Below are positions 7,976-30,822 of a stretch of 32,000 bases of DNA, in pieces; within the stretch, counting starts at the first letter, position 1, and every line of letters begins with the position of its first letter. The stretch lies in the NCBI RefSeq assembly GCF_002075285.3, contig NZ_CP021983.2:4140001-4172000 (forward strand). Direction: 5' to 3'. The translations under genes and the position numbers were made by a program. The notes beneath the pieces are model-generated. The model saw nothing but the letters and a program-made list of their open reading frames with translations. It was not told the DNA's origin and made no database searches. This DNA is from Halomicronema hongdechloris C2206. Its GTDB lineage: Bacteria; Cyanobacteriota; Cyanobacteriia; Phormidesmidales; Phormidesmidaceae.

Positions 7976-7990
7976 AAGATTATAGGAGCA

Positions 7991-8127: not shown

Positions 8128-8598
8128 TCAGGCCATATCTGAGGGCACCTGCCCCGAGGAGGGGTGCTGCAGTTGGGTCTGCAGCAGCGATTGCACATCC
8201 TGACGACGCACCTCAATGCCCTTGCGCACATTGCCAGGGGTATCGAAGAAGATGATGCTGTCGATGGGCTTCAGGGCCAGCATTTGAAACAGGATATGGG
8301 TAACGGGCAGCGGCAGGGCCATGACTTGGGGGTCTTTGACCGAGTGGGGGCCAGAGGCGACATCCTGGAGAGTGCAGTAGGCATAGACAATATTCTTGCG
8401 ATTCTCGGGTTGATTGCGATTACTCAGAGCCGTCATCACCCAATTTTGATCCAGGGTCTGCAAGATATAGTACTGGCCATGTTTGAGCTGCATCGCAATG
8501 GCTTTTAGGGTCGGTGCGATCGCACGCACCGCATCGGCTGTCATCCCATCATCGGGTGCTTCATCAATTAAGGTCTGTAGCTGCTGATCGAGATCCAT
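8128..8598 (-). CDS. Conserved hypothetical protein
   Basis: 156-aa ORF with an ATG start, host-like composition and no internal stops. No domain recognised. It is divergent from the HetZ-like gene. Confidence 0.6.
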   Translation of the reverse strand: MDLDQQLQTLIDEAPDDGMTADAVRAIAPTLKAIAMQLKHGQYYILQTLDQNWVMTALSNRNQPENRKNIVYAYCTLQDVASGPHSVKDPQVMALPLPVTHILFQMLALKPIDSIIFFDTPGNVRKGIEVRRQDVQSLLQTQLQHPSSGQVPSDMA

Positions 8599-8806
8599 GG
8601 GTTCCCTAATTCATTTGCGGCAGGTTGGTGTGCCAGTGCACTTCACCAAAGCTTTACATAGGGCTTGCTACCGGGGCAGAAGCCCCAGGCAAGTAGCTTT
8701 ACCAGAGCGTAGCATCATTGACATCGCCCCTAGTCTAGACCGAGATGCCATCAATGGGAGGACCTATGCTAGGGTTTTAAGGATCACATGCTGTCAGGGT
8801 ACTGCT

Positions 8807-13352: not shown

Positions 13353-14027
13353 CTACACCCGAAATAGGGTATTCCTAACCTGCTTTTGCAGCTGGCGGCT
13401 GACATAGCAATCCCCGTTGAGGCAGTCTAGCAATAGCTGATTGGCATTGTAGTATTCCTGCAAAGTCTCAATCTCAGCGTCACTAAAGTGCCAATCGTGA
13501 CCAATATCACGGTGGCGAATAAGGTGTGCCTGCAGTCGAGATACTACAGCGCCTAGATTATCCATCCACTGCTCTTGCATATCCGACTGCAATTGTAGTG
13601 TTTCCATGGTCTCTTGCCAGCCAGTCTGGAATGAGTCTTTGCTGGGAAATGAGGTGAGCTGAATCGTCGCATTAATGATCTGTAAATCGGCCTTGACCTT
13701 GTCCCAGGCTGTGAAGACTTCAGAGCTAGACTCTGAAGTCTTGGATAGTTTTTTGAGGTTACTCAGAAAATTAAGCAACAACCGATCTAGATCCATTTCT
13801 GGCTCGATTGTCGTGGAATCCAGGGGGCTAATTATCTCTTCGCGGCTGAGTGAATAGATGAAATAAAAGGCTCGAACGAAAGATTGAGGCCGTTTTGTCT
13901 CTATCTGTGACGCCTTCTGATTCACCCAGGTCAGAAACTCAATGAGCCGCGGCTCAAATGATAGAATCTCATCAGTTTTCTGCTGCATGAGCTTGATCAA
14001 ACCATCAGCCCGAGCAGACATATTCAC
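13353..14027 (-). CDS. 3' fragment of the IS-split NACHT gene (NACHT C-terminal helical region)
   Basis: It reads in frame with the 15260-16895 fragment once the IS and one target-duplication copy are removed (...FLLAVN|MSARADGLIKLMQQ...). GC is low (about 43%), like the 5' fragment. The C-terminal HDWHFSDAEIETLQEYYNANQLLLDCLNGDCYVS is typical of cyanobacterial NACHT tails, from recall. Confidence 0.75.
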   Translation of the reverse strand: MNMSARADGLIKLMQQKTDEILSFEPRLIEFLTWVNQKASQIETKRPQSFVRAFYFIYSLSREEIISPLDSTTIEPEMDLDRLLLNFLSNLKKLSKTSESSSEVFTAWDKVKADLQIINATIQLTSFPSKDSFQTGWQETMETLQLQSDMQEQWMDNLGAVVSRLQAHLIRHRDIGHDWHFSDAEIETLQEYYNANQLLLDCLNGDCYVSRQLQKQVRNTLFRV

Positions 14028-14030
14028 CGC

Positions 14031-15259
14031 AGGGCCATTTCATTCTCAAGGGGACCTAAAGATGCTAGAGTTTCAGGCTAATCCCAATGGTCCTAGCGTC
14101 TATGCGTCTGCCCCCTACCCCTACTACCCTCGACTCGAGGCATGAGCCTGCTGTAGAGCGCATCGAGATCCTCGAAGCCTTCGTTGCCCTGCCAGATGTC
14201 CGTCAGGCCTCTGGCAAACGACATCAGATGGCCTTATGCCTGGCGCTCTTCACCCTGGCGGTGACGGCCGGTAATCGTGGATTTCTGGCCATTGGCGACT
14301 GGCTCAAAAGCTACCGCAGCGAGTTGATTGACCTCTTCAACCCGCCCAAGGGCCGTCTTCCCTCCTACAGCACGATTCGCCGGGTGCTGCTAAAGCTAGA
14401 CTATGGACAGTATTCGGCGGCCTTGGCTCGGTTCTTTGGCATTGAACCGTTAGCCGGTGAAACCTTAGCGGTGGATGGCAAAGTCTTACGCGGGTCGTAT
14501 CAACTGGAGACTGACAATCCTGACTCTCCCCCTCATCCCGCCATTCTATTGGTCAGTGCTTATCTGGTGGAGCGGGGGTTGATTCTGGAGCCCTATCAGG
14601 TAGAGCACAAGACCAACGAAATCAAAGCCCTGCCCGAGTTCATTAAGCAACTGGCGCTGAAGGGGGTGGTGATAGCCTTTGATGCGATTAGCACCCAAAA
14701 AAAACTGTCAGCTCATCCTTGACACCGACAATCATTACTTGGGTGCCCTCAAAGGCAATCAGGGTAACTTGCACAAAAGCGTTCAGGCCAACTTTATCGC
14801 TGAGGACAGCTACACCGAGGTCAGTAAAGGGCATGGGCGACTGGAGAAGCGGGTCGTTAGCCTATGCACCACCCTCGATAACATCAAGCCCTGGCCAGGG
14901 CTGAAGACGCTCATTCGAGTGGAGAGTGAGCGACACTTCAAGAAGGGCGGGCAGCCTCACTTAGAAACTGAGACCCGCTACTATGTCGCCTCGTTTTTAG
15001 AATCAGCGGAATCCTTGGCTCGGCGCATTCGGGGCTATTGGGGCGTTGAAAATAAGGTACATCATATCCGGGATGTGACCCAGGGAGAAGATGCTTCGCG
15101 CATTCGTATGCACCAGTTGCCGCAAATCTTCGCCGTCGCTCGAAACTTCGCGCTCAACCTCTATCGCTCCAACGAGTTCGCCAATATGGCTCAGGCTGAA
15201 CGACTCTGCAAGTTTGGTCTAGATACCCTCAAGGCCATTTTTAGAATGAAATAGCCCTG
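14031..15259 (+). mobile_element. ISAs1-family insertion sequence (1229 bp)
   Basis: The terminal inverted repeats are CAGGGCCATTTCATTCT (14031-14047) and AGAATGAAATAGCCCTG (15243-15259), matching 16/17. A perfect 9-bp direct repeat TATTCACCG flanks the element at 14022-14030 and 15260-15268. It encloses an ISAs1-type transposase. Confidence 0.9.
14087..15254 (+). pseudogene. ISAs1-family (H-repeat-associated type) transposase, split by a frame change in an A8 run
   Basis: N-terminal motif ILEAFVALPDVRQASGKRHQMALCLALFTLAVTAGNRGFLAIGDW. Other family motifs are DAISTQKK, LGALKGNQGNL and YWGVENKVHHIRDVTQGEDASRIR. It forms two overlapping ORFs (14087-14722 and 14679-15254), and the frames meet at AAAAAAAA 14697-14704. 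Confidence 0.85.
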
Positions 15260-16895
15260 TATTCACCGCCAACAGAAATACCTCATTCCATTGCTTGTTT
15301 CTGACCTGCTCAAACACAGTTTGTAATCGCTCAAGCTCATACTCAGAGGCAATCGCCTTGGCAGCAAAGTACTCTTGAAAGCTGAGGTGAGAGAATGAGT
15401 AAATACCGTAGGCACGCTCTACAAACAAACCATGCTGTGCCTCTATAGATTTCAAGACAATCTCTCCCTGCCGTTCCATCTCATAGGGCAGGAGTTTACG
15501 ATTGCGCTTGCCCGGCAGATTGACAATATAGTTGGCGATGTAGTCGGCAAGAGTTTGTTTCCTGAAGAAAATGGCTGATTGCTCAAATGCTTGCAGGGCA
15601 ATGTGGCTTAGCATGCCTACTTTTCGAGCAACAGAGAGTTCTTGGTAGAGCTGACCCCGCTCAATATTACGGCTGGCATCCCATCGCCTTAAGAGTGTAT
15701 TAATTCCCTCTTCATATAACTCTGCCCGACTGTCTGGAAAATCTGCCTCCTCTTCGAAAACCAAGCATAGCAGGGTTAGCAATAATGGATTCGTTGCCAA
15801 CTCTTGAATCCGAGGATTTCGTTGGAGTTTTTCCAAGAAGCGGGCCGCCTTGTCAGGTGTTTGTTTATGGGTAAACCAGTGATTGGCAAACTCCTGGATT
15901 TGCTGCTCGTTGAAATCGGCAACTTCTACTTCAGTAAACTGCTCAAAGACGTATTCTTGAGCCGCAACTCGGCAGGTTAAGATAAAGCGATTCCCATGAA
16001 AATTTTCAGTAAAACTTTGGATTTGCTGATTGACTCGGTGTAAGTCTTCTATCCGTACTTCATCTAGTCCATCCAAGAGCAGTAAAACCCGTCTCTCTTT
16101 GAGTAGGTACTCGATTTCATAACCATGCACCTTCCAGGAGTCATGATCCTGAATCAGGTATTCTAGCAGACTAGGTGATCCATTCTTCTCCGCAAAATCT
16201 TTGAGGACGACAAATATGGGTAAATGGTCAGGAAAGAGTTTACGCTCGCTACACTGAATGGCTATGTGCTTGAGGAATGTAGTTTTGCCAGCACCTGGCT
16301 TACCTATGACCAGTAGTTTTTCTTGCTGTTGCACATAATCAATTCCGGATATCTTCTTCACTATTCTGCGATTCAGGCCGAAGCGATCCAAGCTATTGCC
16401 GTCATTTTTAGCTTGAAAATCCCGAAGTAGGTCATCAATCCGTAACCGTCGATGCCTTGAGACTTGCTCTAAGACATTAATCTCCGTGAAAATGCTGGAC
16501 AGTTCCAAGGGGCTCGTCATATCGAGCACTCGCATGGTACTGCACTCATTACGAATTTTTTCCCTTAATCGCTCATTAAGTTCGTTCACAAAGGCGTCGG
16601 TGTCTATGTCACTCAAACGACTAGGGTGGTTCGGATTTTCTCGGTGATATTGTTCCTGGAGAAAATAGCGGAGTCGCTCTTTCTTACCCCGCCCACCTTC
16701 CCTGAAGCTAAATTTCACATAGACATTCCCCATCCGCGCTTTATAGGCAGACAGGGAAATGTTTAGGTTCTTAATAATGACTTGATCGGTTATTTCACTG
16801 GAGAATGTCTCGACAAAGGCTTCTTCCTCAAGCGACGTCAAACCATATTCCCTCGCCAATTTGACGAGGAAATCCTGCGATATTTCTTCCTGCAT
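15219..16895 (-). CDS. HTH-NACHT NTPase, 5' fragment interrupted by the IS (last 13 codons are IS-derived)
   Basis: Walker A GKPGAGKTTFLKHIA; Walker B LLLLDGLDEV. The N-terminal LuxR/sigma-region-4-like HTH is LTSLEEEAFVETF...NISLSAYKARMGNVYVKF. Native sequence ends at 15260; TGLFHSKNGLEGI-stop is read from the IS end. ATG 16895 is preferred over the track's TTG 16946. Confidence 0.85.
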   Translation of the reverse strand: MQEEISQDFLVKLAREYGLTSLEEEAFVETFSSEITDQVIIKNLNISLSAYKARMGNVYVKFSFREGGRGKKERLRYFLQEQYHRENPNHPSRLSDIDTDAFVNELNERLREKIRNECSTMRVLDMTSPLELSSIFTEINVLEQVSRHRRLRIDDLLRDFQAKNDGNSLDRFGLNRRIVKKISGIDYVQQQEKLLVIGKPGAGKTTFLKHIAIQCSERKLFPDHLPIFVVLKDFAEKNGSPSLLEYLIQDHDSWKVHGYEIEYLLKERRVLLLLDGLDEVRIEDLHRVNQQIQSFTENFHGNRFILTCRVAAQEYVFEQFTEVEVADFNEQQIQEFANHWFTHKQTPDKAARFLEKLQRNPRIQELATNPLLLTLLCLVFEEEADFPDSRAELYEEGINTLLRRWDASRNIERGQLYQELSVARKVGMLSHIALQAFEQSAIFFRKQTLADYIANYIVNLPGKRNRKLLPYEMERQGEIVLKSIEAQHGLFVERAYGIYSFSHLSFQEYFAAKAIASEYELERLQTVFEQVRNKQWNEVFLLAVNTGLFHSKNGLEGI

Positions 16896-17152
16896 GACTC
16901 GCGGTAGATGTGCTCTTTTAACCCTGTACCCCTTATATTCAGCCAAAAATCCGGGAGCGTCAATGGTTATGGAGTCAGCCCCATTGTTGGTCTAAACGGA
17001 TACTCGATAGCTCAAAGTAAGTATTCTGCTTCCAAACCTTTGGGCTGAGAGTACTCGGATCCGTGTTATAGTTCCGGGTAGTTTATGACGACTGCAGCTG
17101 CAGAACCTAGGCTACCTCCGTCTCTCGAAGCTTAGTCATATCAGAGCCGCCA

Positions 17153-17932: not shown

Positions 17933-18565
17933 CTAGGCGCTTGGGCTCACGGTACTAGTTGCAGCCTCAGTGGACTCGGCTTTTTCCGCCAGCTCTTGCA
18001 ATCGCTTGATGCGATCTTCAGTGGGAGGATGGGTCATGAACAACGTCATCAGCCCTTCTTTTGAGAGCGGATTCATGATGAACATCGAGGCAAAGGCCGG
18101 ATTGCCGTGAATCGGCACCTCCTGTCCCCGGGTTTCCAGGGTTTCCAACGCCTTTACCAGGGCCAGGAGGTTCCCTGTAATCTCGGCGGCACCGGCATCA
18201 GCGGCACATTCTCGAGTGCGGGAGATGGCCATGCGCAGTAAACCGGCGGCCAGGGGACCAACCACCAGCAAAAACAAAATGGCAATGGGATTGCTACCCC
18301 GTCGCCCGACTAGGGCAACGGGAAAGTACAGGGCCCCTAGCGTCAGAATGCGCCCCAGGTAAGTCATTGCTCTGGAAAGTGTCCCCGCCACCGCTTGGGT
18401 CAGGGTATCGCGGTTGCGTACATGGGTGAGCTCGTGGGCAATCACACTGTCTAACTGATCATCCGGCAGTAGATCGATGAGGCCTTGGGTCAATGCGATC
18501 GCAGCGTGGTTCGGATCGCGTCCGGTGGCAAATGCATTGGGAGAGTCCGACGGCACCACATACAA
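17933..18565 (-). pseudogene. htpX: HtpX-like M48 zinc metalloprotease, 5'-truncated
   Basis: It begins at the conserved YVVPSDSPNAFATGRDP segment and has HELTHVRNRD (HExxH) plus the C-terminal THPPTEDRIKRL. About 80-90 N-terminal residues, including the first TM helices, are absent. An in-frame TAG sits immediately upstream, and only a TTG start is available. Confidence 0.7.
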
Positions 18566-18730: not shown

Positions 18731-19216
18731 TTAGCATCCTATTGATTTTGCAAGGATATTGACTTCAGCTTTGGGCAATCGGCGGTTGTGGCGCTTGAGG
18801 ATAGAGAGCCATTCACACAGGAGTTCTGCACTGGCTAATTGGCGCTCATAAACGGACTGGATAATCCAGAGGGTGCCATGAACTGGGACTTGCTGCTTCT
18901 GACAGGATCTTCGGAGAGGCTTTTCGTTGGTTAACAACAGCCGTTGATAGGTCTTGGCATAGTACAGGCAGAGGGCATCTTGAAAACTGAGTGGTCCCCT
19001 TTGATAGGCGCGGGCTAGGAGCGCCCACTCTTGGGTGACGGTAACCGTTTGAATGCCAGCAGTCACGATCGCCTCCGGCAAATCCGGCTGACGAGGGTGG
19101 CAGCATTCATCAAAGACGACATCCAGAACCTCGACTGTGCCCAACTGTGTCAAGACGGATAAGCCATCAACATAGCCCAGGTCTATGAGGACATTGGCAT
19201 CTGACAGCAGAATCAA
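18731..19216 (-). CDS. PIN-domain protein (putative toxin partner of XRE-ImmA/IrrE)
   Basis: 161-aa ORF. The N-terminal LLSDANVLIDL carries the acidic PIN residue, and further acidic positions occur in DVVFDE, SFQDAL and LLLTNEKPL. Its TTG start overlaps the upstream stop (TTGA at 19213-19216). Confidence 0.65.
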   Translation of the reverse strand: MILLSDANVLIDLGYVDGLSVLTQLGTVEVLDVVFDECCHPRQPDLPEAIVTAGIQTVTVTQEWALLARAYQRGPLSFQDALCLYYAKTYQRLLLTNEKPLRRSCQKQQVPVHGTLWIIQSVYERQLASAELLCEWLSILKRHNRRLPKAEVNILAKSIGC

Positions 19217-20301
19217 ACTTCCAGTTCCTCCAACCAGTCGTTCAGTGTGTCGCGCAACTCGACCAAAGGCTTGCCTAAAATCTCTGCGGCTCTAGAAATC
19301 GTAATTTCTTCTTGGAGCAAGGCCAGAAAGACCATGCGTTCCAGGCGAGTTAAACGTTCGGAGTCTGGTAAATCAACAGGTTCATTGGTTAGGCCATGCT
19401 TCTTATTGAGCTGGCCAATTTGCTGCTCTTTTTGTTTTTGGGAGATGATGCCGACGTCAGCAGCTCGGTACAAAACGGTTCTCATGCTGACGCCATATCG
19501 TCGCTTCATATCGGCGAGTAGGGGTTCTGGCAGCCAGCGCCGGCGATAACCATGCAGTTCACGGCGGATGACATCTTCGGGCAAGAGAACGGCCCCGGCG
19601 AAGTGGTTGGCTACCTTTTCCCGTGGGTCAGAGCGCCCGCCTGCTTTTTCGTTGGGGACTCGATACTCCTGACGATGAAAAATTAGGTGGGCAAGCTCGT
19701 GGAGGGCAGTGAAGAATTTCCGCTCCGTGGGATGAACCGCATTGATAAAGATGACGGCACCTGAGGTTTCGGTGTAGGCCGAAAACCCTGAGATCTCGTT
19801 GGGCAGCGGGTGCAAGATGACCTTCAGCCCTTTCGACTCCAATAGGGCCAGGGCATCTCCCAAGGGGCAGGTTTCGCCCATGCCCAGCCAGTCGCGAATC
19901 TCCCGTGCGACTTCTTCAACGACATGAGCATCGTACCCGGCCAGCGGGCGCATCTCTGGCAGGGTGGGGATTTCGTGGATCAGTTGCTCAATAAAGGTAT
20001 AGTCTTCGGCTTTTCGGGAGAGGGCCGCCCGCAGGTGAGGATTGAGCGCCGAGGGCTGATCAGCCCGAAACATCAGCCCTGCCGTTTCGGGCATGGCCAC
20101 AGCCTCGGTGTCTGGCAGTAGCAGATCGACTGCGATGTCCAAGAACTGAGCAATTTGGGTGAGTTGAGCGACAGACGGTTCCCGATCGCCCTTTTCCCAC
20201 GCGGCGATCGTTTGCCGGGTAACCCCTAGATATTGTCCCAGCTCTGCCTGAGAGATTCCGGCTTGCTCTCGATAAATTCGGATTGAGTTAACATTTCTCA
20301 T
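19213..20301 (-). CDS. XRE-family HTH fused to an ImmA/IrrE (COG2856, M78) zinc metallopeptidase
   Basis: The N-terminal HTH is ISQAELGQYLGVTRQTIAAWEKGDREPSVAQLTQIAQFL. The central region carries HELAHLIFH (HExxH). Confidence 0.85.
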   Translation of the reverse strand: MRNVNSIRIYREQAGISQAELGQYLGVTRQTIAAWEKGDREPSVAQLTQIAQFLDIAVDLLLPDTEAVAMPETAGLMFRADQPSALNPHLRAALSRKAEDYTFIEQLIHEIPTLPEMRPLAGYDAHVVEEVAREIRDWLGMGETCPLGDALALLESKGLKVILHPLPNEISGFSAYTETSGAVIFINAVHPTERKFFTALHELAHLIFHRQEYRVPNEKAGGRSDPREKVANHFAGAVLLPEDVIRRELHGYRRRWLPEPLLADMKRRYGVSMRTVLYRAADVGIISQKQKEQQIGQLNKKHGLTNEPVDLPDSERLTRLERMVFLALLQEEITISRAAEILGKPLVELRDTLNDWLEELEV

Positions 20302-22435: not shown

Positions 22436-22849
22436 ATGGCAACTCCCCAGGATTCTCCTGCAGATCGCTCTGTGCAGGTTGGCGGTGACATCACCGGCAG
22501 CGCCGTGGTTACCGGCGACCACAACACGGTGCAGGTTCAACCGGCATCATTACCGTCGCCGGAAACGGTCGATATCCAGGCCGAACTGAAGGCCTTGCAA
22601 ACGCTGCTGGCCGGCTTTGATGACCCGGTGGCCACCGGGGTCGCCCAGAAGCTAGCGCAGGAGGCCGCCAAGCCAGAGCCGGATAAGAGCGCCATCGCCA
22701 CCACTTTAGAAACGGGCCTGACCTACGCCCAGAGCCTGGCTGGATTCGCCGAGGCCATCGACAAGCTGCGGCCCCATGTGGAAGCGGCGGCTGGCTGGCT
22801 AGGCAAGCAGGGCTATAAGCTGCTGCCGCTGGTGGGATTAACGCTGTAG
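22436..22849 (+). CDS. Small protein sharing its N-terminal leader motif with the downstream STAND NTPase
   Basis: 137-aa ORF with an ATG start, ending 39 bp upstream of the STAND gene. Its N-terminus DRSVQVGGDITGSAVVTGDHNTVQV parallels DRSIRIEDSAVGSAIVSGDGNTIYV in the next gene. The rest is Ala-rich and probably helical. Confidence 0.65.
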   Translation: MATPQDSPADRSVQVGGDITGSAVVTGDHNTVQVQPASLPSPETVDIQAELKALQTLLAGFDDPVATGVAQKLAQEAAKPEPDKSAIATTLETGLTYAQSLAGFAEAIDKLRPHVEAAAGWLGKQGYKLLPLVGLTL

Positions 22850-22888: not shown

Positions 22889-23950
22889 ATGACCGAGCCC
22901 CAACCTGACCGCAGCATTCGCATCGAGGACAGCGCCGTTGGCAGTGCCATCGTGTCTGGGGATGGCAACACCATCTATGTGATCCAGCAGAGTCTAGAGC
23001 AACGGCAGCCGCAACCAGCGGCAGATAATCCCGCCATTGGCCCCAACCCCTACAAGGGATTAGCGGCGTTTAAGGAGCGTGATAGCGATCGCTACTTTGG
23101 CCGGGAAGCACAAGTCGAACGACTCTGGCAGTGGTTTCAGACTCTGGTTGAGCAATCTACGGTTCCGAGAGTCCTGCCAATCTTGGGGCCATCGGGGTGT
23201 GGCAAATCTTCCCTGGCGAGAGCGGGCCTGATTCCTGAACTGGCTCGACGACCGCTACCAGGGAAAGAACAGATGCGGGTGGCGGTGCTGGTGCCGGGCA
23301 CTCACCCGGTTGCAGCCTTGGCAGGGGTGCTAGCTAAAGCTGTGACTCAAGACTCCATGCCGGTGACTAAAACACGGGAGTTTGCGGCTGAGCTGAGGTT
23401 GCAGGCTGAAACGGGAGACTACGATGGTCTGCGCCGCATTGCCAACCTGATGCCCCAGATTCAAGATTCGCCGCTGGTGATACTGGTGGATCAGTTTGAG
23501 GAGGTTTATTCGCTCTGTAAAGACGTTAGTGAGCGGCAGGCCTTTATTGAGACGTTAATCCATGCGGCGGGTGACCCGACGGGCAATGTATCGGTGGTGA
23601 TCACGCTGCGGAGCGACTTCTTGGGAGAAACCCAGCAACATCCAGTGCTGAATCAGATTCTGGGCAGCGCGGGATATAATCCCGTCGTGCAAGCCATGAC
23701 TCCAGAGGAGTTGCGCCGGGCCATTGCTGAACCCGCGAAGCAGGCTGGACATCCCCTGGATGAAGCCACGATTGATTTGCTGGTGAAGGATACGGAAGGA
23801 CGGGAGGGGGCGTTACCGCTGTTGCAATTTGCCCTGACCCGGATGTGGGACGGGTTAGGGCAGGGAAATCCCCGGCTGACCTGTACCGTGAGATGGGCGG
23901 TGTGGGCGGTGCACTGGCGGGGAAGGCTCAGGAGATCTATGAGCGTCTGA
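22889..23950 (+). CDS. nSTAND-type P-loop NTPase, N-terminal part of a frameshifted STAND-TM-WD40 gene
   Basis: After the leader motif it reads NPYKGLAAFKERDSDRYFGREAQVERL, then Walker A GPSGCGKSSLARAG and Walker B LVILVDQFEEV. The conserved LPLLQFALTRMW then runs into the out-of-frame tail GNPRLTCTVRWAVWAV. Confidence 0.8.
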   Translation: MTEPQPDRSIRIEDSAVGSAIVSGDGNTIYVIQQSLEQRQPQPAADNPAIGPNPYKGLAAFKERDSDRYFGREAQVERLWQWFQTLVEQSTVPRVLPILGPSGCGKSSLARAGLIPELARRPLPGKEQMRVAVLVPGTHPVAALAGVLAKAVTQDSMPVTKTREFAAELRLQAETGDYDGLRRIANLMPQIQDSPLVILVDQFEEVYSLCKDVSERQAFIETLIHAAGDPTGNVSVVITLRSDFLGETQQHPVLNQILGSAGYNPVVQAMTPEELRRAIAEPAKQAGHPLDEATIDLLVKDTEGREGALPLLQFALTRMWDGLGQGNPRLTCTVRWAVWAVHWRGRLRRSMSV

Positions 23951-26900
23951 ACCAGGACGAACAAGCCATTGCCAGACGGGTCTTTGTGGGGTTGGTGCAG
24001 CTTGGGGAAGGCACCCGCGATACTCGGCGACGGGCGGCGTTAGAGAGTTTGGTGGCAAGTCGGGATACGCCAGAAGCGGTGAAGCAGGTGATCCATCGGT
24101 TTGCCTCACCGGGGGCAAGATTGGTGACCCTCGCCCACGAGGCTAAGCAAGAAACGGCAGAAGTGACCCATGAGGCGCTGTTTGACCATTGGCAGCAGTT
24201 GTATGACTGGCTAGACAGCAGTCGAGACGATATTCGCTTTCAGCGGCGACTGGAGGCAGCGGCAACGTATTGGGAGAAGCAAGGACGACCTGAGGGACTG
24301 CTGTGGCGACGACCCGACTTGGATCTCTTACACACCTATTTCGCGTCTTTTCAGCAAGACATGACTACCTTACAGCTTCAGTTTTATCAAGCATCTACAC
24401 GTGCAAGAAAACTACGAAAAATTTTAGTTTGGGGAATAGTCGGGGCATTAGGAGTAATGACTGGAGGCATAGCTTGGTTTGGTCGTCAGGCACATCGAAC
24501 TGCATTTCTATCTAAGACTCAACAGTTAGCGCTGCAAGCTGAGTCTCTAGTGAGTCAACAAGAAGTACAACAACAAAAAGCAGGAGCTTTACTAGCAGTC
24601 AAGTCCTGGCAGCAGTTTCAACTGATGAAAAAATCATCCTTAGAAGTTGACCGAGCGCTCCGAAGTAGTTTAAATGTTCTCCCTGAGAGTGAGTTCATCT
24701 ATCTTGACCATATTAATGAGATTGTGTCTTGGGGTTCTATTGGCATAACATCTTTCACCATTGGACATAATTACTTTATTGACTCTGCGATCTTTAGTCC
24801 CGATGGTGAGAAAATTGTTGTTTTTTATCAAACTCCTGAAAGCTCTTTCTGGTCTGGTGAGGCGAGAATTTGGGATGTTGCGACTCAGAAGGAGATTTTT
24901 CGAATAGATCATGAGGTAACTATAGACTCTGTCACTTTTAGTTCTGACGGAGAAAAGATTTTTTACAGTAGCACAGATGAAGTGTTTTTTGGAGTAGATG
25001 TATCGACCCAAAAAGAATTGTTTCGCTTTGAATTAGATAGCCCTGTTGATTCGATTGTTTTTAACTCTGACGGAAAATCGTTTATTTTAGCTTTTAAATA
25101 CAATCCTTACTTGCTAGAAATTCGGGATATTAAGAGTGGCAAGAAAATTCGTGAAATTACTGACTTAGATCTGTTTCAAGATTTTTCGTTTAGAGTAGAT
25201 GATGCAAAAATTATCTCTATCAATTTGGAGGGTATAGTAAAGACATGGGATATCCATACTGGAAAAGAGATAAATCAAATACAAATAGCAAATCTTCAAA
25301 AGTTTGACTATGCGGTTAAATTAAGTCCTGATGGGAAGCGGTTCATTTCTAGTAGCGAAGGCGATGATGGCATATTGCTATGGGATACTTTCAAAGGATC
25401 TAGAATTTCTTGGATCAGTCACGCAGACTATTACTCTGCTTTATTCAGTCATAATGGCAAATGGTTCGCTTTTCTTGACAAAGACGGAGTTTTGAAGGTA
25501 CACAGATCCTCTGATGGAAAAGAAGTTTTTTATTCTCAGGATGGTCTTGAAGTTAAATCTTTCAAATTTAGTCCCAACGAGAGTCAGATAGCCTTTGTGA
25601 CGGCGGATGATATGGTAAGAGTATGGAGTATCAATGTCAGAAGAGAAGTTGCTCGCTTTAATCATGAGGGATATATTCGAGCAATTAATTTTAGTCTTGA
25701 TGGAACGAAAATTGCTTCTGCTAGTGTCACAGATACTGGCTTAAGTAATTACTGGATTCCTCTTGATATGCCAACTCTAAAAGTTTGGAATGTTGACACT
25801 GATACTAACGAAGAATTTTCTCTCAAACACAATGATAGTATTAACTTTGCTACTTTTAACCCAGATGGAACGAATGTTATTTCTGCAAGTGATGACGGAA
25901 CAGCAAGATTATGGAACACATATACTGGACAAGAATTGAAAAGTTTTGATCATAAAAATCCAGTTTTATTCGCATCGTTTAATCCCACCAAGAATCAAAT
26001 AGTTTCTGTTGATGCTGACAAAACGTTACGAGTGTGGGATATCAAAACTGGCCTAGCATTAGAGGAAATAAAGCATGAACACAATATTGAATTTGCTGCC
26101 TTTAGTGCTGATGGAAGTCGATTATTCTCTTTAAGCTACAGTGGAGATCGTGAAACTCCGATTTCCAATAGGGATAGTACCATTAGAGTATGGGATACAA
26201 ATGACTATAATGAAATAATTCATACTGATTCTGGATTTAACAGAAATATCTTCTTCAGCTCTGATAGTAAATGGCTTGCTCATTATGATGGTGAAGACTG
26301 GAGGTTTTGGAATACTGATACTGGGCAAGAAGTTTCTGAGCCTAATTACCGAAAGGGATTTCTTATTAATTTCAGGGATTTGAGGACTCAGTATTTCAAC
26401 CCTGAAGCGTGGGATAGAGGAAAACCATTTAGTCCGGATGGAAGCCGGATTTTTCGAAGTGACAGCTTGTTTAATAGAGGGTTGGTAGAGATTTTAGAGC
26501 TTCCTTCTGAGCGCAATAAGATAAGCCAGTTTACTCATGGCCATCAATTTAATGATGCAGATTTTAGCCCCAATGGTGAACTTATAGTCTCTTCTAGTGA
26601 TGATGATACGATAAGAGTCTGGAAAACTTCCGATGGTTCAGAAGTCGCTCGATTTAGTCATAAGAACACTACCTCTGTAGCTTTTAGTCCTGATGGGACT
26701 CGAATTGTCTCCACCAGTGCTAACCACACAGCAAAGATATGGCTGATTGATACAGCAGAGTTGGCTGCGAGGGTTTGTCAGAGAGTCAAGCGAAATTTGA
26801 CCTCTGAAGAATGGCTCAACTATATTGGCTCAGAATTAACAGAATACGAATTAACTTGCCCAGACTATCCAGTGCATCCTAGCCTTCTTGATAGAGCAAG

Positions 26901-27075
26901 AATTGATGCTGCACGTGGTGATATTCGTTCATCTATAGTTCTCTTAAATCATCTTATTAGGATCAGTAAGACGGCTGGTCACACCGTTGATTTAGATCCT
27001 TCAACGGAGAGCATTGAACAAGATCCTAAAGCTTACTCGAATAAAATTGCAGCAGATAGCGAGGCAGAACAGTAA
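23845..27075 (+). CDS. C-terminal part of the same STAND gene: helical region, one TM helix, about 14 degenerate WD40 blades and a Cys-containing tail
   Basis: The frame is -1 relative to 22889-23950. KSPADLYREMGGVGGALAGKAQEIY...GEGTRDTRRR continues the family-typical sequence. The TM helix is ILVWGIVGALGVMTGGIAWFG. WD40 signatures include FSPDGEKIV, DDGTARLWN, DKTLRVWD and DDDTIRVWK. The tail is RNLTSEEWLNYIG...LTCPDYP. Confidence 0.8.
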   Translation: MGRVRAGKSPADLYREMGGVGGALAGKAQEIYERLNQDEQAIARRVFVGLVQLGEGTRDTRRRAALESLVASRDTPEAVKQVIHRFASPGARLVTLAHEAKQETAEVTHEALFDHWQQLYDWLDSSRDDIRFQRRLEAAATYWEKQGRPEGLLWRRPDLDLLHTYFASFQQDMTTLQLQFYQASTRARKLRKILVWGIVGALGVMTGGIAWFGRQAHRTAFLSKTQQLALQAESLVSQQEVQQQKAGALLAVKSWQQFQLMKKSSLEVDRALRSSLNVLPESEFIYLDHINEIVSWGSIGITSFTIGHNYFIDSAIFSPDGEKIVVFYQTPESSFWSGEARIWDVATQKEIFRIDHEVTIDSVTFSSDGEKIFYSSTDEVFFGVDVSTQKELFRFELDSPVDSIVFNSDGKSFILAFKYNPYLLEIRDIKSGKKIREITDLDLFQDFSFRVDDAKIISINLEGIVKTWDIHTGKEINQIQIANLQKFDYAVKLSPDGKRFISSSEGDDGILLWDTFKGSRISWISHADYYSALFSHNGKWFAFLDKDGVLKVHRSSDGKEVFYSQDGLEVKSFKFSPNESQIAFVTADDMVRVWSINVRREVARFNHEGYIRAINFSLDGTKIASASVTDTGLSNYWIPLDMPTLKVWNVDTDTNEEFSLKHNDSINFATFNPDGTNVISASDDGTARLWNTYTGQELKSFDHKNPVLFASFNPTKNQIVSVDADKTLRVWDIKTGLALEEIKHEHNIEFAAFSADGSRLFSLSYSGDRETPISNRDSTIRVWDTNDYNEIIHTDSGFNRNIFFSSDSKWLAHYDGEDWRFWNTDTGQEVSEPNYRKGFLINFRDLRTQYFNPEAWDRGKPFSPDGSRIFRSDSLFNRGLVEILELPSERNKISQFTHGHQFNDADFSPNGELIVSSSDDDTIRVWKTSDGSEVARFSHKNTTSVAFSPDGTRIVSTSANHTAKIWLIDTAELAARVCQRVKRNLTSEEWLNYIGSELTEYELTCPDYPVHPSLLDRARIDAARGDIRSSIVLLNHLIRISKTAGHTVDLDPSTESIEQDPKAYSNKIAADSEAEQ

Positions 27076-27243
27076 AATGTATTCGGTACGTTCGCGAGGG
27101 AAGCATGGCTTACTTACGATCGCTAAGCCTGGAAGTAAACTCGTCGTATCTTGTAAGCAGGGTTGGCGCGATGCCCTCCACATCCTAATTCGCCAAACCC
27201 ACAGCAGTTAAGATTCAGAGACAGCCATCCTCACAGGTTCCCT

Positions 27244-27384: not shown

Positions 27385-27627
27385 ATGAATCTCTTAGAAA
27401 GCCAAGTCTTAGAAAAAATGAAGGTTCTATCTCAGGAAAAACAGCAAGAGGTTTTAGACTTCGTGGAATTTCTCATTTCAAGAGCTACACCCCAGGCAAG
27501 TTCTATAGAGCTTCCCCAACCTTTAGAAAGCTCATTCGTTGAAGCCGCCCGACAATATGTTGGTTGCACCGAAGGACCAGGAGATCTTTCGACAAATCCC
27601 AATTATATGGAAGGCTATGGGACTTAA
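27385..27627 (+). CDS. Type II antitoxin (DUF2281-like) paired with the downstream PIN toxin
   Basis: 80-aa ORF. The N-terminus LEKMKVLSQEKQQEVLDFVEFLISR and the C-terminal DLSTNPNYMEGYG are typical of antitoxins of cyanobacterial PIN toxins. Its stop overlaps the next start (TAATG). Confidence 0.65.
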   Translation: MNLLESQVLEKMKVLSQEKQQEVLDFVEFLISRATPQASSIELPQPLESSFVEAARQYVGCTEGPGDLSTNPNYMEGYGT

Positions 27628-28049
27628 TGGCGCAGTCTCATCTAATAATCGACACGGGTCCGCTAGTCGCCATTATTAATCGACGTGATCAATGGCATGA
27701 ATGGGCTGTCAACGAACTGAGCCTGATCCAACCGCCTTTATTCACCTGTGAGGCTGTAATTTCCGAAGCTCATTTTTTGTTAGGACGAGTCCATAATGGA
27801 AGAGAAGCTTTGATGGGTCTGTTGGCTGATCGGCTGGTGCAAATTCCCTGGCAGCTTTCTGAAGAGTTGGATTCAGTTAGGAAGTTGTTGCAGCGTTATC
27901 GGTCAGTACCAATGTCTTTAGCAGATGCCTGCTTGGTGAGAATGGCTGAGCAATATTCGGGAAGCAAAGTCTTTACGATTGATGGTGATTTCAGGATTTA
28001 CCGAATGGATCGTGATCAAATCATTCCTGCGATCATACCTGAGGATTGA
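27627..28049 (+). CDS. PIN-domain toxin (VapC-like)
   Basis: MAQSHLIIDTGPLVAII carries the first acidic residue. Later motifs are CEAVISEAHFLL, SLADACLV and FTIDGDFRIY. The ATG overlaps the antitoxin stop. Confidence 0.75.
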   Translation: MAQSHLIIDTGPLVAIINRRDQWHEWAVNELSLIQPPLFTCEAVISEAHFLLGRVHNGREALMGLLADRLVQIPWQLSEELDSVRKLLQRYRSVPMSLADACLVRMAEQYSGSKVFTIDGDFRIYRMDRDQIIPAIIPED

Positions 28050-28070: not shown

Positions 28071-28415
28071 TTATGGCAGCCACCAGCGCGCAGCCTTTGC
28101 CGCTTGAAGAGTAGTAGAAAGCATGAGTTGCCTACTTGGTGAGTAGCAGATGGGATAATGCAAGCAATCTCTCAACAGACTTTTGCAAGTCTTCGTAGGC
28201 ATGAACCTCGTCCCGGTGCCTGAGGTAGTAGCCATCACAAGGTAAATATCGGAAAGCTGTAAGGATGGGTATTGCTCCCCGATTTCTTCTGGAGTGCAGC
28301 CCTCCAGAAAAGCAATCACAACGGTGTCTAGCGTGACACGAGTTTCAGCAACTCGGACAACACCTTGAGCATCAGCTTTGATCGGTGCAGGTTCAAGCGC
28401 AATAGCTAACGTCAT
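28071..28415 (-). pseudogene. DUF433-family protein with a frameshift near 28233
   Basis: The first 60 codons (GVVRVAETRVTLDTVVIAFLEGCTPEEIGEQYPSLQLSDIYLV) are DUF433. The family-typical continuation GYYLRHRDEVHAYEDLQKSVERLLALSHLLLTK-stop (stop at 28133-28135) lies in another frame. The 114-aa track ORF has a non-homologous tail. Confidence 0.65.
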
Positions 28416-28661: not shown

Positions 28662-29216
28662 ATGATTGCCGTCCCCCACTACCTCAGCCCCGAAGAATAT
28701 CTAGATCTCGAAACCCAAAGCCCCATTCGCCACGAGTATCGCCGGGGCTTAGCCTATGCTATGGCTGGGGGTACCGACAATCACGATCGTCTGGCCCTCA
28801 ACCTGCTTACCCTCATTAACCTACATTTGGGCGATTCTGAGTGTCGATTCCATTCCGGCAATGTGAAAGTTAACTACCAAGACGAGTTTTATGACTATCC
28901 CGACGCCTTCATTACCTGCGATCCGCGCGATAGAGCCGATCGCTATATCAAACGCTACCCAAAACTAATTGCAGAAGTCCTGTCACCCAGTACCCAAGCA
29001 TTCGATCTCAGTGAAAAGTTCGATGATTATCAAAAGCTGGCATCTTTAGAAGAATATATGCTGATTTTCCAAGACAGTCAGCGGGTAGAATGCCGTCGCC
29101 GCACCCCTGGTAATACCTGGGAAAGCGTCGTTTATAGGATGGGCGATCGCGTTCTCCTCAAGAGTATTGACTTGGAATTTGCCATTGCTGACCTGTATCG
29201 CGGCTTAGATGGTTAG
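28662..29216 (+). CDS. Uma2-family (DUF820) PD-(D/E)xK endonuclease
   Basis: 184-aa ORF. Typical Uma2 features are SPEEYLDLE...RHEYRRG, the DAFITCD acidic residue, PKLIAEVLSPST and EYMLIFQD. Confidence 0.8.
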   Translation: MIAVPHYLSPEEYLDLETQSPIRHEYRRGLAYAMAGGTDNHDRLALNLLTLINLHLGDSECRFHSGNVKVNYQDEFYDYPDAFITCDPRDRADRYIKRYPKLIAEVLSPSTQAFDLSEKFDDYQKLASLEEYMLIFQDSQRVECRRRTPGNTWESVVYRMGDRVLLKSIDLEFAIADLYRGLDG

Positions 29217-29487: not shown

Positions 29488-29799
29488 CTAGAGATATTTC
29501 GGAGTTCTCCATAATCCACGAATTTGCCTCAACTCGGCCAGCCAGTTGAGATCACGTCCATAGGTTTTGTCTAAAGCTCCAGTTTTGACGAAGTGCAGAC
29601 TGATTGCTCTCAGAACTCCAGCATGACTGCCAAAAGTCAAATCTCTTGAAAGCAGCAAGGCAGAAGCAGCATGAAACGCCGCATAGTAAGCTCTGGATGC
29701 AGCATCATTTGGAAAACCAGACGATAACAACGTTCTTGCCGCTTCTAGGGAAGACTCCGCTCGGTTAAAGTTGGCCCGAATCTCCTCAGGACGGCTCAA
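29488..29799 (-). CDS. HEPN-domain protein (toxin of a HEPN/MNT pair), C-terminus possibly frameshifted or truncated
   Basis: SRAYYAAFHAASALLL...SHAGVLRAISLHFVKTG...LAELRQIR is HEPN-like. The expected D-Y-G continuation (DYGELRNIS) lies in the adjacent frame just before the stop. The TTG start overlaps the MNT stop (TTGA). Confidence 0.65.
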   Translation of the reverse strand: MSRPEEIRANFNRAESSLEAARTLLSSGFPNDAASRAYYAAFHAASALLLSRDLTFGSHAGVLRAISLHFVKTGALDKTYGRDLNWLAELRQIRGLWRTPKYL

Positions 29800-30137
29800 A
29801 GCGAGATCCCCTCTCGATGAATATTGCGATACAACTGACTGACCCCTTGCTCAAATTCGTCTTGGGCCGCAGGTTTAGCCGACAGCCAATAGCTGGCTTC
29901 CAGTTGGAGAGGATAAAGCAAATCAACAATGGTACGTAACTCCTGGAAGTAGTTGACCAGAGGAGCCAGCAAAACCAGTAGGTCAACGTCGCTCTCTGGC
30001 GTCAGCGCGTCCTTCGCGGCAGAGCCATAGAGAATGAGAGATTTCAGCTTATCGCCATAGTGCTCAAGCAAAACTTGTTTGCAGGCGGCCAGGGTCTCCT
30101 GTAAAGGGAACTCCAAATCCGGTTGAGCCGTTTTCAC
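29796..30137 (-). CDS. Minimal nucleotidyltransferase (MNT antitoxin of the HEPN/MNT pair)
   Basis: LILYGSAAKDALTPESDVDLLVLL carries the GS...DxD motif. GTG 30137 is proposed as the start. The track ORF extends to 30218 and would overlap the upstream Uma2 gene. Confidence 0.75.
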   Translation of the reverse strand: MKTAQPDLEFPLQETLAACKQVLLEHYGDKLKSLILYGSAAKDALTPESDVDLLVLLAPLVNYFQELRTIVDLLYPLQLEASYWLSAKPAAQDEFEQGVSQLYRNIHREGISL

Positions 30138-30156
30138 GTCGATTCCCTCGATCGCC

Positions 30157-30822
30157 TCATAGCTGCTGCGCCAACCACTGGGCCACACTGCCATTCGACT
30201 CCGTTGCCAGCCGTCCAAACGCCTGCTCCACCAGCGACGCCTCCAACCCCGCCAAAGCCACCGACGTCAGCGTCTGCTGATATAGCCCCTCCGGCGACAG
30301 TCGAAACACCATCAGCCGCGCCGCCTGCACATCAACCACCCAGTATTCCGGAATTTCCAGCCAGCCATAGATCTGCTTCTTCTCATCCAGATCGGTGGCC
30401 AGGGTGGTATCACCCACCTCACACACCAGATCCGGCACCCGCCACTGCCGCAGATTCACCCGCCGCGGTTCCCCCGGCTGCCAACGAGGCACATCCGCTC
30501 CGATGTATAACACCTCATCCGGTGAGGCCGCCCGCTGCTGAGGCTTTTCGAGAATGCATCCGCCCAAGCAGTCAAACGACTGCCCTGGCTGTCGACGGCT
30601 AAACCAGGCGAAAAAGATCATCGCTAACAATTCTCTGAAGCGGGCATGGTCGACCCCTTCCCAGCCCATATCAATAAACAACCGTCCTTGATTGAAGAAG
30701 ATGCGAAAGTGCTCAGCCTTGGCAGTATTGACGCTGTTCAGATAGTCTTGCCAGGTAGCAATGTACCACCGGGGTAGGTCGCTGGGGGACTGACGGGCCG
30801 GAATTTGAGAGACCGATACCAC
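30157..30822 (-). CDS. Uma2-family (DUF820) endonuclease
   Basis: 221-aa ORF with a GTG start. The motifs VPDLVCEVGDTTLATDLDEKKQIYGWLEIPEYWVVD match the Uma2 catalytic core. Confidence 0.7.
   Translation of the reverse strand: MVSVSQIPARQSPSDLPRWYIATWQDYLNSVNTAKAEHFRIFFNQGRLFIDMGWEGVDHARFRELLAMIFFAWFSRRQPGQSFDCLGGCILEKPQQRAASPDEVLYIGADVPRWQPGEPRRVNLRQWRVPDLVCEVGDTTLATDLDEKKQIYGWLEIPEYWVVDVQAARLMVFRLSPEGLYQQTLTSVALAGLEASLVEQAFGRLATESNGSVAQWLAQQL

Follow-up and report, generated by a model that had tools for sequence, protein, structure and literature searches.

On balance, the STAND gene in the analysed stretch of Halomicronema hongdechloris C2206 DNA (32,000 nt, here called the window) appears to be a recombinant mosaic in which a host-like NTPase half is followed by an AT-rich sensor half, module exchange being the likeliest way in which it arose. 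In the assembly the gene occupies two ORFs in different frames, ORF A (22889-23950, XM38_039500 of H. hongdechloris C2206) and ORF B (23845-27075), as seen from the ORF list and a three-frame translation, and its nSTAND1 domain is split by a frameshift over two annotated CDSs of this organism. With the frameshift repaired the predicted product of the locus is a single NLR-like protein of 1395 aa from the nSTAND1 clade of STAND proteins, with domains in the order short N-terminal adaptor-like motif, P-loop NTPase plus helical domain, hydrophobic helix with linker, WD40 array of about 16 blades and helical tail. The features are as follows.

22436-22849, + strand: 137-aa ORF directly 5' of the STAND gene, putative adaptor partner (ORF list)
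22889-23866, + strand: first part of the nSTAND1 NTPase, ORF A to the frameshift (Pfam PF20703, E 6.7e-70, profile 1-240)
23186-23209, + strand: P-loop motif GPSGCGKS in the first part of nSTAND1
23483-23503, + strand: Walker B motif LVDQFEE in the first part of nSTAND1
23866-23868, + strand: frameshift site, an AAA run with one base missing (homologues imply GGA AAA TCC CCG, G-K-S-P)
23866-24322, + strand: C-terminal helical part of nSTAND1 in the frame of ORF B (PF20703 profile 248-378, E 1.2e-36)
24298-24330, + strand: LLWRRPDLDLL, the last family-wide conserved motif (invariant or near-invariant alignment columns)
24323-27084, + strand: low-GC tract comprising the linker with hydrophobic helix, WD40 array and helical tail (stop codon 27073-27075)
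24421-24483, + strand: hydrophobic 21-residue helix ILVWGIVGALGVMTGGIAWFG, candidate transmembrane segment preceded by RARKLRK (Kyte-Doolittle)
24748-26745, + strand: WD40 beta-propeller array of about 64 strands in about 16 strongly diverged blades (Pfam WD40, PF00400, E 5.2e-44)
26752-27072, + strand: family-specific helical tail (CQRVKRNLTSEEW...LTCPDYPVHP...DLDPSTE; model helices H809-H914)

The 1-nt frameshift falls inside the nSTAND1 domain, leaving profile positions 1-240 in ORF A and 248-378 in ORF B, so that the assembled gene does not encode one uninterrupted polypeptide; together the two ORFs supply the full-length PF20703 profile, Walker A and Walker B included, and the Pfam match stops at about nt 24295. 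Homologues aligned at the frameshift read EGK(A/T)PA and every one of them is continuous there. As the genome is a hybrid assembly of 454, Solexa and early PacBio data, a homopolymer sequencing error at 23866-23868 may be responsible. For this 454/Solexa/PacBio hybrid the genome paper states that many PacBio reads were chimeric, that contigs were joined by hand and that those of low coverage were discarded; it also describes a closed genome in which contig joins were checked by PCR/Sanger. The locus, annotated as two unrelated CDSs, is better read as one gene, possibly pseudogenised. Long-standing decay after the frameshift was rejected because the region 23866-24322 retains a host-like composition (GC 0.60, GC3 0.62; ORF A has GC 0.58, GC3 0.62) and is 57-87% identical to relatives per 30-aa window, and because the frame of the C half stays open over 917 codons. 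The chance of such an open frame is about 10^-28.8, and stops number 38-124 in the other five frames; the sensor half, with its intact propeller-forming frame, is still a gene. The accessible part of the proteome supplement text contains no mention of locus tags XM38_039490-039520, and a terminator and promoter scan 3' of the stop codon gave nothing beyond chance.

The break in composition is sharp. In the preliminary description GC had been counted by hand in seven 60-nt windows, and all seven values were reproduced exactly (60.0, 63.3, 51.7, 36.7, 36.7, 40.0 and 55.0%); its step inside a single ORF is real and lies inside ORF B, but the frameshift means that 22889-27075 as a whole is not one ORF. 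GC is 58.7% at 22889-24322 against 38.5% at 24323-27084. The maximum-likelihood change-point is at nt 24323 (59.6% to 37.6% GC, log-likelihood gain about 97), just after LLWRRPDLDLL and ahead of the hydrophobic helix that starts at 24421, which bears out the earlier placing of the fall at the NTPase/sensor boundary; the second is at nt 27084 (37.8% to 48.7% GC), about 10 nt past the stop codon and so inside the margin of about 50 nt first given for the end of the tract. A change-point on GC3 only falls at nt 24382, GC3 dropping from 0.62 to 0.30 within about 60 nt, an abrupt silent-site break inside coding sequence of the kind that marks a mosaic gene. GC climbs to 50-55% right after the stop codon, and GC3 is also depressed (0.44-0.52) in the downstream genes at 27.5-29.2 kb.

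At 38.5% GC the tract lies far below all other 2.76-kb windows (mean 54.4%, sd 3.2, minimum 46.6%), and its GC3 of 0.30 is lower than that of all 24 other ORFs of the window (0.44-0.78). GC at its fourfold sites is 0.27, compared with 0.46-0.57 in all 15 intergenic stretches of the window, and decay under the host mutation spectrum is therefore an unlikely source. Relative synonymous codon usage (RSCU) of the N half correlates with that of native genes at +0.57, while the C half gives -0.45 against native genes and +0.46 to +0.73 against four Nostocales loci. In dinucleotide signature, normalised for GC, the tract lies at a distance of 0.092, and 48 other windows lie at 0.046 +/- 0.012 (maximum 0.078). 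The amino-acid composition of the C half is shifted towards AT, with FYMINK 0.28 and GARP 0.19, compared with 0.10-0.20 and 0.26-0.33 in homologous C halves, and by the same measures the N halves of H. hongdechloris and its homologues are alike; amino-acid composition alone was rejected as the cause of the break because GC3 and fourfold sites show the largest drop.

The sensor half has the parts expected of a WD40 sensor, the PF00400 match, the AlphaFold2 model and Foldseek all indicating repeated four-stranded blades and closed propellers. The model (pLDDT 75) has strands E141-E806 followed by helices H809-H914; the top Foldseek matches are the tandem propellers 2ymu (a Nostoc repetitive propeller) and Apaf-1 3sfz, with 3j2t also found (E 2e-32 to tandem propellers), and in Pfam the array also matches many beta-propeller families. 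The helix ILVWGIVGALGVMTGGIAWFG contains the highest Kyte-Doolittle 19-mer of the protein (1.83) and sits within a long predicted helix (model residues 14-75); homologues have a hydrophobic segment at the same place. The blades had been described as unusually divergent and not homogenised, and this is correct: the identity of a blade to its best other blade is 0.32, whereas 10 homologues have 0.53-0.84. TRF found no tandem repeat in the WD40 region, and in the Nodosilinea homologue P0122 it found 15.8 copies of a 123-nt unit with 86% matches (blade self-identity 0.81), so the array lacks the features of highly repetitive (HIC) WD40 arrays, in which blades are at least about 70-80% identical and DNA tandem repeats are present. 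The helical tail is low in GC too (GC3 0.31) and is 40-57% identical to the tails of P0122-P0128 and P0014.

At the composition break protein identity collapses as well: with all 14 relatives it is 57-87% over aa 451-480 and falls to 23-53% over aa 481-510; DNA identity to homologues is 61-79% in LLWRRPDLDLL and 42-58% over the following 60 nt. Leptolyngbya/Nodosilinea-like cyanobacteria contain relatives of the NTPase half and of the upstream 137-aa gene at 60-76% identity. The NTPase half has more than 100 PF20703-carrying homologues at 55-76% identity among its 120 best matches, including relatives at 70-76%, whereas the sensor half has no relative above about 34% in 5.8 billion proteins, the ceiling for the C half overall being 31-34%. 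No donor or relative of the sensor half was found in those 5.8e9 proteins, in 1.84e9 representatives, in IMG/VR or in PLSDB; a phage or plasmid origin was rejected for want of a match in the last two. A protein search with linker plus tail gave a single 40% match, P0388. The two ends of the protein also differ in their nearest relatives, which are P0014, P0002 and P0003 (75-76%) for the N half and P0128 (57%) for the tail, the tail of P0014 being 43% identical; C-half identities are all low and, as no relative of the sensor half was found, this two-lineage test rests on weak identities (43-58%). Compared with the Nodosilinea locus the upstream ORF is 63-66%, the N half 61-62%, the linker 33-37% and the tail 45-46% identical, and in the Nodosilinea trio identity is lost gradually over aa 520-600, with no clean joint. 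Across the family the identities of NTPase and sensor are discordant (P0002 versus P0014, N 86, C 38; P0003 versus P0010, N 70, C 73; P0122 versus P0124, N 46, tail 67; P0122 versus P0014, N 61, tail 50), and module shuffling therefore occurs.

The preliminary description had the sensor cassette swapped in from a low-GC donor, for which the foreign-looking codon usage and dinucleotides and the N/C discordance in the family speak, but neither a donor lineage nor a related strain with another cassette at the same junction was found to go with it. The NTPase half and the 137-aa gene 5' of it are of host composition. If the gene is a mosaic, the segment from just past LLWRRPDLDLL to the stop codon would stem from a family member that had diverged deeply and evolved long in a genome of about 35-40% GC, the sensor module having been joined in frame at the last family-conserved sequence block. 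Recombination would then be the cause of the composition break, and the source of the sensor was presumably a low-GC cyanobacterium. Either direction may apply, with the sensor imported or the NTPase replaced. Against the mosaic, the tract ends only about 10 nt past the stop codon and there is no displaced remnant of an older sensor downstream, neither of which would be expected of a random foreign fragment; the old hybrid assembly with its reported chimeric PacBio reads, the gradual loss of identity in the Nodosilinea trio and the milder GC3 drops of homologues (below) also count against it.

Some of these features would follow if the sensor had always been in the lineage and had drifted, as a fast-evolving module, to an AT-rich equilibrium while the NTPase half was held at host GC, which we consider rather unlikely. 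Under such divergence in situ the sensor would have become too diverged to recombine and so would escape GC-biased gene conversion, or codon-usage selection, and the sharpness of the boundary would reflect the end of homology with relatives at the PDLDLL motif. AT-richness is reportedly general in bacterial sequence that is orphan or evolves fast (Daubin & Ochman 2004; Lassalle et al. 2015), and the coincidence of the tract limits with the module start and the stop codon, the orphan, unhomogenised sensor and the failure of protein searches to find a donor all fit. The preliminary description had taken the same intragenic GC step in all homologues as the sign of a family-wide property; the step is not common to all, but a milder drop in GC3 past the motif, in linker and/or WD, is present in six of 10 homologues (L023b, P0126, P0124, P0134, L001 and L002) and some step at the boundary is therefore a family tendency, which favours divergence in situ. 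The GC3 difference (WD minus N) ranges in homologues from -0.14 to +0.19, in both directions, and linker GC3 minus that of the NTPase half has a mean of -0.10 and a minimum of -0.25; H. hongdechloris is an outlier against them (z -2.9 for WD, -2.1 for linker), which weighs against this explanation. So does the fourfold GC of the tract, far under that of native non-coding DNA in the window, as does its dinucleotide signature, the most deviant of the window, and the two halves lie in one transcript, so codon selection should be equal. A link between GC3 and blade homogenisation through GC-biased conversion, which appeared strong with six genes, was rejected, as with 11 it is not significant (rho 0.58, p 0.06), nor is the correlation without H. 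hongdechloris (rho 0.44, p 0.2), which also tells against divergence in situ; the link fails as well for the linker and tail, which are equally AT-rich and not repeats.

An unlikely variant is that the polarity was reversed, the whole gene having come from a low-GC source, perhaps with the downstream PIN/DUF433/Uma2 block, and its 5' half having later been overwritten by homologous recombination that brought in a host-type NTPase with the upstream adaptor gene and ended at the conserved motif. The depressed GC3 at 27.5-29.2 kb would be explained, as would the uniform divergence of the upstream ORF and N half, as one block, from the Nodosilinea locus, and a conversion tract running in from the 5' side would lose homology at the last conserved motif, where the junction lies. 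Set against this, no N-half paralogue from H. hongdechloris is among the 120 best matches (the best non-self match, at 76%, is from other organisms), and the rise in GC directly past the stop means that the downstream block differs from the sensor in composition. In a scan of genome contigs two close loci (Calothrix and Nostoc) and no H. hongdechloris paralogue were among the matches listed.

It is very improbable that a low-GC organism in co-culture contributed a homologous gene fragment which the hybrid assembly fused into the gene of H. hongdechloris. The chimeric reads, manual joins and discarded low-coverage contigs of the genome paper and a frameshift typical of homopolymer error 460 nt upstream would suit such an artefact, but it needs two joins, in frame and collinear with the family architecture, with motifs neither duplicated nor lost; family nucleotide identity at the motif (61-79% over 33 nt) is too low for an assembler overlap, and contig joins of the closed genome were checked by PCR/Sanger. 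We also give little credence to a targeted diversification or mutation regime that keeps only the sensor module AT-rich, from the PDLDLL junction to the stop, with H. hongdechloris at the far end of the milder GC3 drops of six of 10 homologues. AT-biased hypermutation or diversification of the sensor segment, as a bacterial counterpart to RIP or DGR-type targeting, is hardly credible: the tract equals the sensor module, an orphan with unusually diverged blades, and in multicellular bacteria the sensors of NACHT and nSTAND1 proteins are known DGR targets, but DGR variable regions are C-type-lectin folds of about 100 bp and not 2.7 kb of WD40, no reverse transcriptase was found among the Pfam-scanned window ORFs and no template repeat was identified, a C/G to T/A mutator would destroy TGG and CAA/CAG codons and yet 917 codons are open and complete propellers are modelled, and the linker and tail, though not repeats, are just as AT-rich.

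The mosaic reading has its closest mechanistic parallel in Rhs/CDI polymorphic toxins, in which C-terminal displacement occurs and the GC profile delimits the modules (Jackson et al. 2009, BMC Genomics 10:584, PMC2935791). There a conserved core and a short, highly conserved peptide motif are followed by a variable C-terminal module of other base composition, swapped by recombination at the motif; LLWRRPDLDLL, with the change-point at 24323, is a junction motif of this type, the likeness being one of mechanism only. The variable module here is a 900-aa sensor and not a small toxin, with no immunity gene, toxin tip or Rhs repeats. Displaced orphan modules of the Rhs kind were rejected, as tblastn with 11 family proteins found no remnant outside the gene, and the downstream genes are PIN, DUF433 and Uma2 (Pfam). 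Apaf-1 and fungal HET-E, HNWD-type NLRs likewise have a STAND NTPase followed by tandem beta-propellers, but the NTPase clade here is nSTAND1, not NB-ARC or NACHT, and fungal and most cyanobacterial WD40 arrays have highly similar blades and repeat reshuffling, unlike the low blade identity and lack of DNA repeats here. With experimentally demonstrated bacterial STAND defence systems (Avs, bNACHT) the gene shares the general tripartite logic and highly variable C-terminal sensors, but it has no nuclease, protease or TIR effector; known anti-phage STAND models gave no PADLOC match, and NCBIfam gave only weak sub-threshold propeller matches. A DGR-diversified STAND sensor was rejected, with no reverse transcriptase or CLec domain in the Pfam-scanned window ORFs and no template repeat identified.

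In multicellular bacteria, swapping of sensor modules is the presumed route to new specificities for STAND/NLR-like proteins, and direct footprints are rare. Module exchange is an already known evolutionary route for NLR-like genes; what the locus offers is a clean junction, resolved to the nucleotide, where the conserved motifs of the NTPase module end, with halves separable by composition without phylogeny. Should LLWRRPDLDLL turn out to be a recurrent swap site in the family, this would specify how nSTAND1 proteins exchange their sensors and would allow recent swaps to be screened for simply by composition. The modelled, well-folded propeller without relatives in about 6 billion proteins shows how far sensors can diverge.

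The nearest relatives in architecture are the nSTAND1 STAND NTPases (Kaur, Iyer, Burroughs & Aravind 2021, eLife, PMC8195603; PF20703), which the gene resembles in its P-loop NTPase and helical domain end to end, in a C-terminal sensor of supersecondary-structure repeats (WD40), in its occurrence in a filamentous cyanobacterium and in a short N-terminal module common to an adjacent small protein, following the 'EAD principle'. It departs from them in halves that differ by 20 GC points, unhomogenised blades, a frameshifted assembly and no recognised effector domain. The STAND protein would be an oligomerising switch that a ligand triggers, the propellers serving as its sensor and the small upstream protein being its putative recruited partner. 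The 137-aa ORF has no match in Pfam, PADLOC or NCBIfam and its GC3 is 0.73; syntenic ORFs of 139 aa lie 5' of P0122, P0123 and P0126 and match it at 63-66% identity. The first 39 or so residues of the 137-aa ORF are 44% identical over 39 aa to the N-terminus of the NTPase (E 3e-6, pairwise BLASTP).

In H. hongdechloris, a chlorophyll-f cyanobacterium with a genome of 54.6% GC (published genome), the gene that carries the compositional step is annotated as two overlapping ORFs, A and B, whose frames differ. The nSTAND1 profile (PF20703, Pfam) is split between them (positions 1-240 in ORF A, 248-378 in ORF B), aligned homologues have no break at this position (...W(E/D)GL..GK(A/S)PA...) and the site reads ggg cag gga aat ccc cgg, one A short of the expected GGA AAA TCC CCG. 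This indicates one gene whose reading frame shifts by 1 nt within the A-run 23866-23868; the preliminary description had assumed a single uninterrupted ORF, the only fault in its observation. The C2206 assembly was built on 454, 36-nt Solexa and early PacBio reads (published genome), and the shift may be either a 454/PacBio homopolymer error or a genuine inactivating mutation. The frameshift-repaired protein is 1395 aa long, collinear with homologues of 1380-1430 aa, and is laid out as follows.

Features of the gene
22889-23950, +, ORF A, 353 aa, identical to annotated XM38_039500 of C2206
23845-27075, +, ORF B, containing the annotated 1057-aa 'WD40 repeat domain-containing protein' of C2206
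Start of repaired protein, +, N-terminal motif
23186-23209, +, P-loop
23483-23503, +, Walker B
24298-24330, +, LLWRRPDLDLL motif that closes the helical domain
24421-24483, +, hydrophobic helix (Kyte-Doolittle 1.83)
Between hydrophobic helix and WD40 array, +, helical linker predicted by AlphaFold2
24748-26745, +, WD40 array of about 16 blades predicted by AlphaFold2
3' of the array, +, family-specific helical tail predicted by AlphaFold2

Recomputation of the hand GC counts in the preliminary description gave the same value in every case. GC content changes at nt 24323 (59.6% to 37.6%, log-likelihood gain about 97) and again at nt 27084 (37.8% to 48.7%), close to the end of the stop codon at 27075, while GC3 alone places the first change-point at nt 24382 (0.62 to 0.30). 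Overall the tract has 38.5% GC, compared with a mean of 54.4% (sd 3.2, minimum 46.6%) for other 2.76-kb windows in the 32 kb, and its GC3 of 0.30 is below that of all 24 other ORFs (0.44-0.78). Codon usage (RSCU) of this C half (24323-27084) correlates negatively with that of native genes of the window (-0.45) and positively with loci from four Nostocales genomes (+0.46 to +0.73); for the N half (22889-24322) the correlation with native genes is +0.57. The encoded amino acids are also AT-shifted in the C half (FYMINK 0.28 and GARP 0.19, against 0.10-0.20 and 0.26-0.33 in homologous C halves; the N halves are alike in both respects), which implies long evolution under AT pressure.

The place where GC falls is also the place where identity to relatives collapses, from 57-87% at residues 451-480 to 23-53% at residues 481-510 in all 14 relatives compared; at the DNA level it is 60-79% up to and including the LLWRRPDLDLL motif and 42-58% over the next 60 nt. 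More than 100 relatives of the N half were found (55-76% identity), chiefly from marine Leptolyngbya-like MAGs, Nodosilinea and Phormidesmis. For the C half both a word-indexed search of 5.8 × 10^9 proteins and an exhaustive HMMER search of 1.84 × 10^9 representatives returned only its own entry and generic WD40 matches, and the best identities of its non-repeat parts are at most 45% (linker) and 58% (tail). The 137-aa ORF upstream has counterparts at the corresponding site of three Nodosilinea loci (63-66% identity), and the genes adjoining these are 61-62% identical to the N half, 33-37% to the linker and 45-46% to the tail. Taken with the silent-site and dinucleotide data given below, these contrasts in composition and relatedness point to separate histories for the N and C halves.

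DNA of ten homologous genes was used to compare GC3 relative to the NTPase half. The WD array differs from the N half by a mean of -0.02 in homologues (sd 0.105, range -0.14 to +0.19) and by -0.32 in H. hongdechloris (z -2.9), and the linker by a mean of -0.10 (minimum -0.25) and -0.30 (z -2.1), respectively. No single GC step is common to all homologues and the H. hongdechloris gene is the extreme of the set, although the compositional step is in part a family-wide property: six of the ten homologues have lower GC3 in the linker just past LLWRRPDLDLL, so that some drop at the junction is recurrent. Pairs of homologues rank oppositely in the identities of their N halves and their C halves or tails (P0002 vs P0014, N 86%, C 38%; P0003 vs P0010, N 70%, C 73%; P0122 vs P0124, N 46%, tail 67%; P0122 vs P0014, N 61%, tail 50%), beyond what rate differences alone would give, which indicates that modules have been reshuffled within the family. 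The syntenic Nodosilinea trio (P0122, P0123 and P0126) has 86-98% nucleotide identity up to residue ~520, 52-67% in the linker (residues ~600-620), 65-78% in the WD array and again 68-93% in the tail; identity of third positions at conserved residues declines gradually from ~80% to ~40%, and independent repeat homogenisation could be part of the cause. GC3 of the WD array in these three genes is 0.78, 0.73 and 0.47, respectively, despite ~90% DNA identity among their N halves. Neighbouring nSTAND1-WD40 genes, two or more per locus, occur at the Nodosilinea loci L023 (notably 6856-8804), L024 and L027. Several of the nearest relatives of the N half, among them P0014 (L026, 18-2429) and P0016, are only 700-800 aa long, with about two blades followed by the tail or the protein end; as these sensors may be short only because repeated blades collapsed during metagenome assembly, statements on the C halves of short relatives are limited.

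The low-GC half is live coding sequence. It has 917 stop-free codons (chance about 10^-28.8 at its own base composition) and the other five frames contain 38-124 stops. An AlphaFold2 model built from 26 sequences (mean pLDDT 75) predicts about 64 strands between a long helical linker and a helical tail, and Foldseek matches it best to tandem propellers, namely 2ymu, WD proteins of the SSU processome and Apaf-1. Long-term decay after pseudogenisation was considered as the origin of the tract and is ruled out by the open frame, by this fold and by the segment 23866-24322, 3' of the frameshift and 5' of the step, which retains host GC and high conservation. The blades were described at the outset as unusually divergent from each other, and this is borne out by a best-other-blade identity of 0.32 compared with 0.53-0.84 in ten homologues. 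TRF found no tandem repeats in this array and, in the gene of Nodosilinea sp. E11, a 123-nt unit in 15.8 copies with 86% matches; the array is thus unlike the typically highly repetitive WD40 arrays of cyanobacterial and fungal NLRs.

The most economical reading, and on balance probably the correct one, is that the gene is a recombinant mosaic, with the direction of exchange left either way. A host-type block of adaptor gene and NTPase would have been joined in frame, at the last family-conserved stretch, to a linker-propeller-tail module from a deeply diverged family member long resident in a genome with some 35-40% GC. Of the swap proposed in the preliminary description, the mosaic origin therefore survives as the best explanation, with a contribution from the family tendency, but neither its low-GC donor nor an alternative allele at the junction was found in the databases searched. 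Divergence in situ at an AT-rich equilibrium would account for this missing donor, for the recurrent mild GC3 drops in homologues and for tract limits that match the module and the stop codon. It is nevertheless rather unlikely, fitting poorly both with the GC of 4-fold-degenerate sites, which at 27% for the C half (T.44, A.29, C.15, G.12; N half 66-72%) lies far under that of native non-coding DNA (46-57% in 15/15 intergenic stretches), and with a GC-normalised dinucleotide distance from the rest of the window of 0.092, the largest of any segment compared (others 0.046 +/- 0.012, maximum 0.078). A variant of the mosaic idea with reverse polarity, in which a foreign gene had its 5' half overwritten, is doubtful. 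An assembly chimera is very improbable as it would require two in-frame, architecture-keeping joins at a nucleotide identity of only 61-79%, and targeted hypermutation, for which the Pfam-scanned ORFs of the window hold no machinery and with which the intact 917-codon frame is hard to reconcile, can virtually be discounted. Neither phenomenon is new: STAND genes are well known to exchange modules, and mosaic genes to show breaks in composition.

Its profile match places the gene in the nSTAND1 clade, whose usual NTPase-plus-repeat logic it shares; none of the curated defence models (PADLOC, NCBIfam) matched it. No reverse transcriptase was found among the Pfam-scanned ORFs of the window, so it is not a DGR target. 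Its apparent build resembles C-terminal displacement in Rhs/CDI toxins, where a module differing in GC likewise comes after a conserved motif (PMC2935791), but the defining features of those systems (orphan tips, immunity genes, toxin domain) are absent at this locus and the resemblance is one of mechanism, not membership. By analogy with the STAND/NLR paradigm and Kaur et al. 2021 (PMC8195603), the protein would be a nucleotide-gated switch in which the propellers would bind ligand, the NTPase would oligomerise, the N-terminal motif would draw in the 137-aa neighbour by homotypic contact and the hydrophobic helix might anchor the protein in a membrane. The first ~39 residues of this neighbour (22436-22849), which has a hydrophobic C-terminus and no match in Pfam, PADLOC or NCBIfam, are 44% identical (E 3e-6) to the N-terminus of the NTPase (22889-23005); the two resemble an adaptor pair as described by the 'EAD principle'.

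Elsewhere in the window a second NLR-like gene (13353-16946, minus strand; NACHT ORF 15219-16946, NCH2 helical-domain ORF 13353-14027) is interrupted by an IS of ~1.23 kb (14030-15259) with 20-nt terminal inverted repeats and a split DDE transposase (ORFs 14087-14722 and 14679-15254). Its NACHT part has the second-lowest GC of the window (46.6%, GC3 0.48). An HTH and M78 (ImmA/IrrE-type) peptidase ORF (19213-20301, minus) matched PADLOC RmrA models (E 2e-42) and overlaps by 4 nt a 161-aa ORF without a family match (18731-19216, minus); an M48 peptidase ORF (17933-18565) comes next, and the group is possibly a further defence or regulatory module. The PIN (27564-28049, +), DUF433 (28071-28415, -) and Uma2 (28662-29216, +) ORFs have moderately depressed GC3 (0.44-0.52). 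A nucleotidyltransferase ORF (29796-30218) and a second Uma2 ORF (30157-30822) lie nearby; the region resembles an accessory island or one rich in toxin-antitoxin systems.
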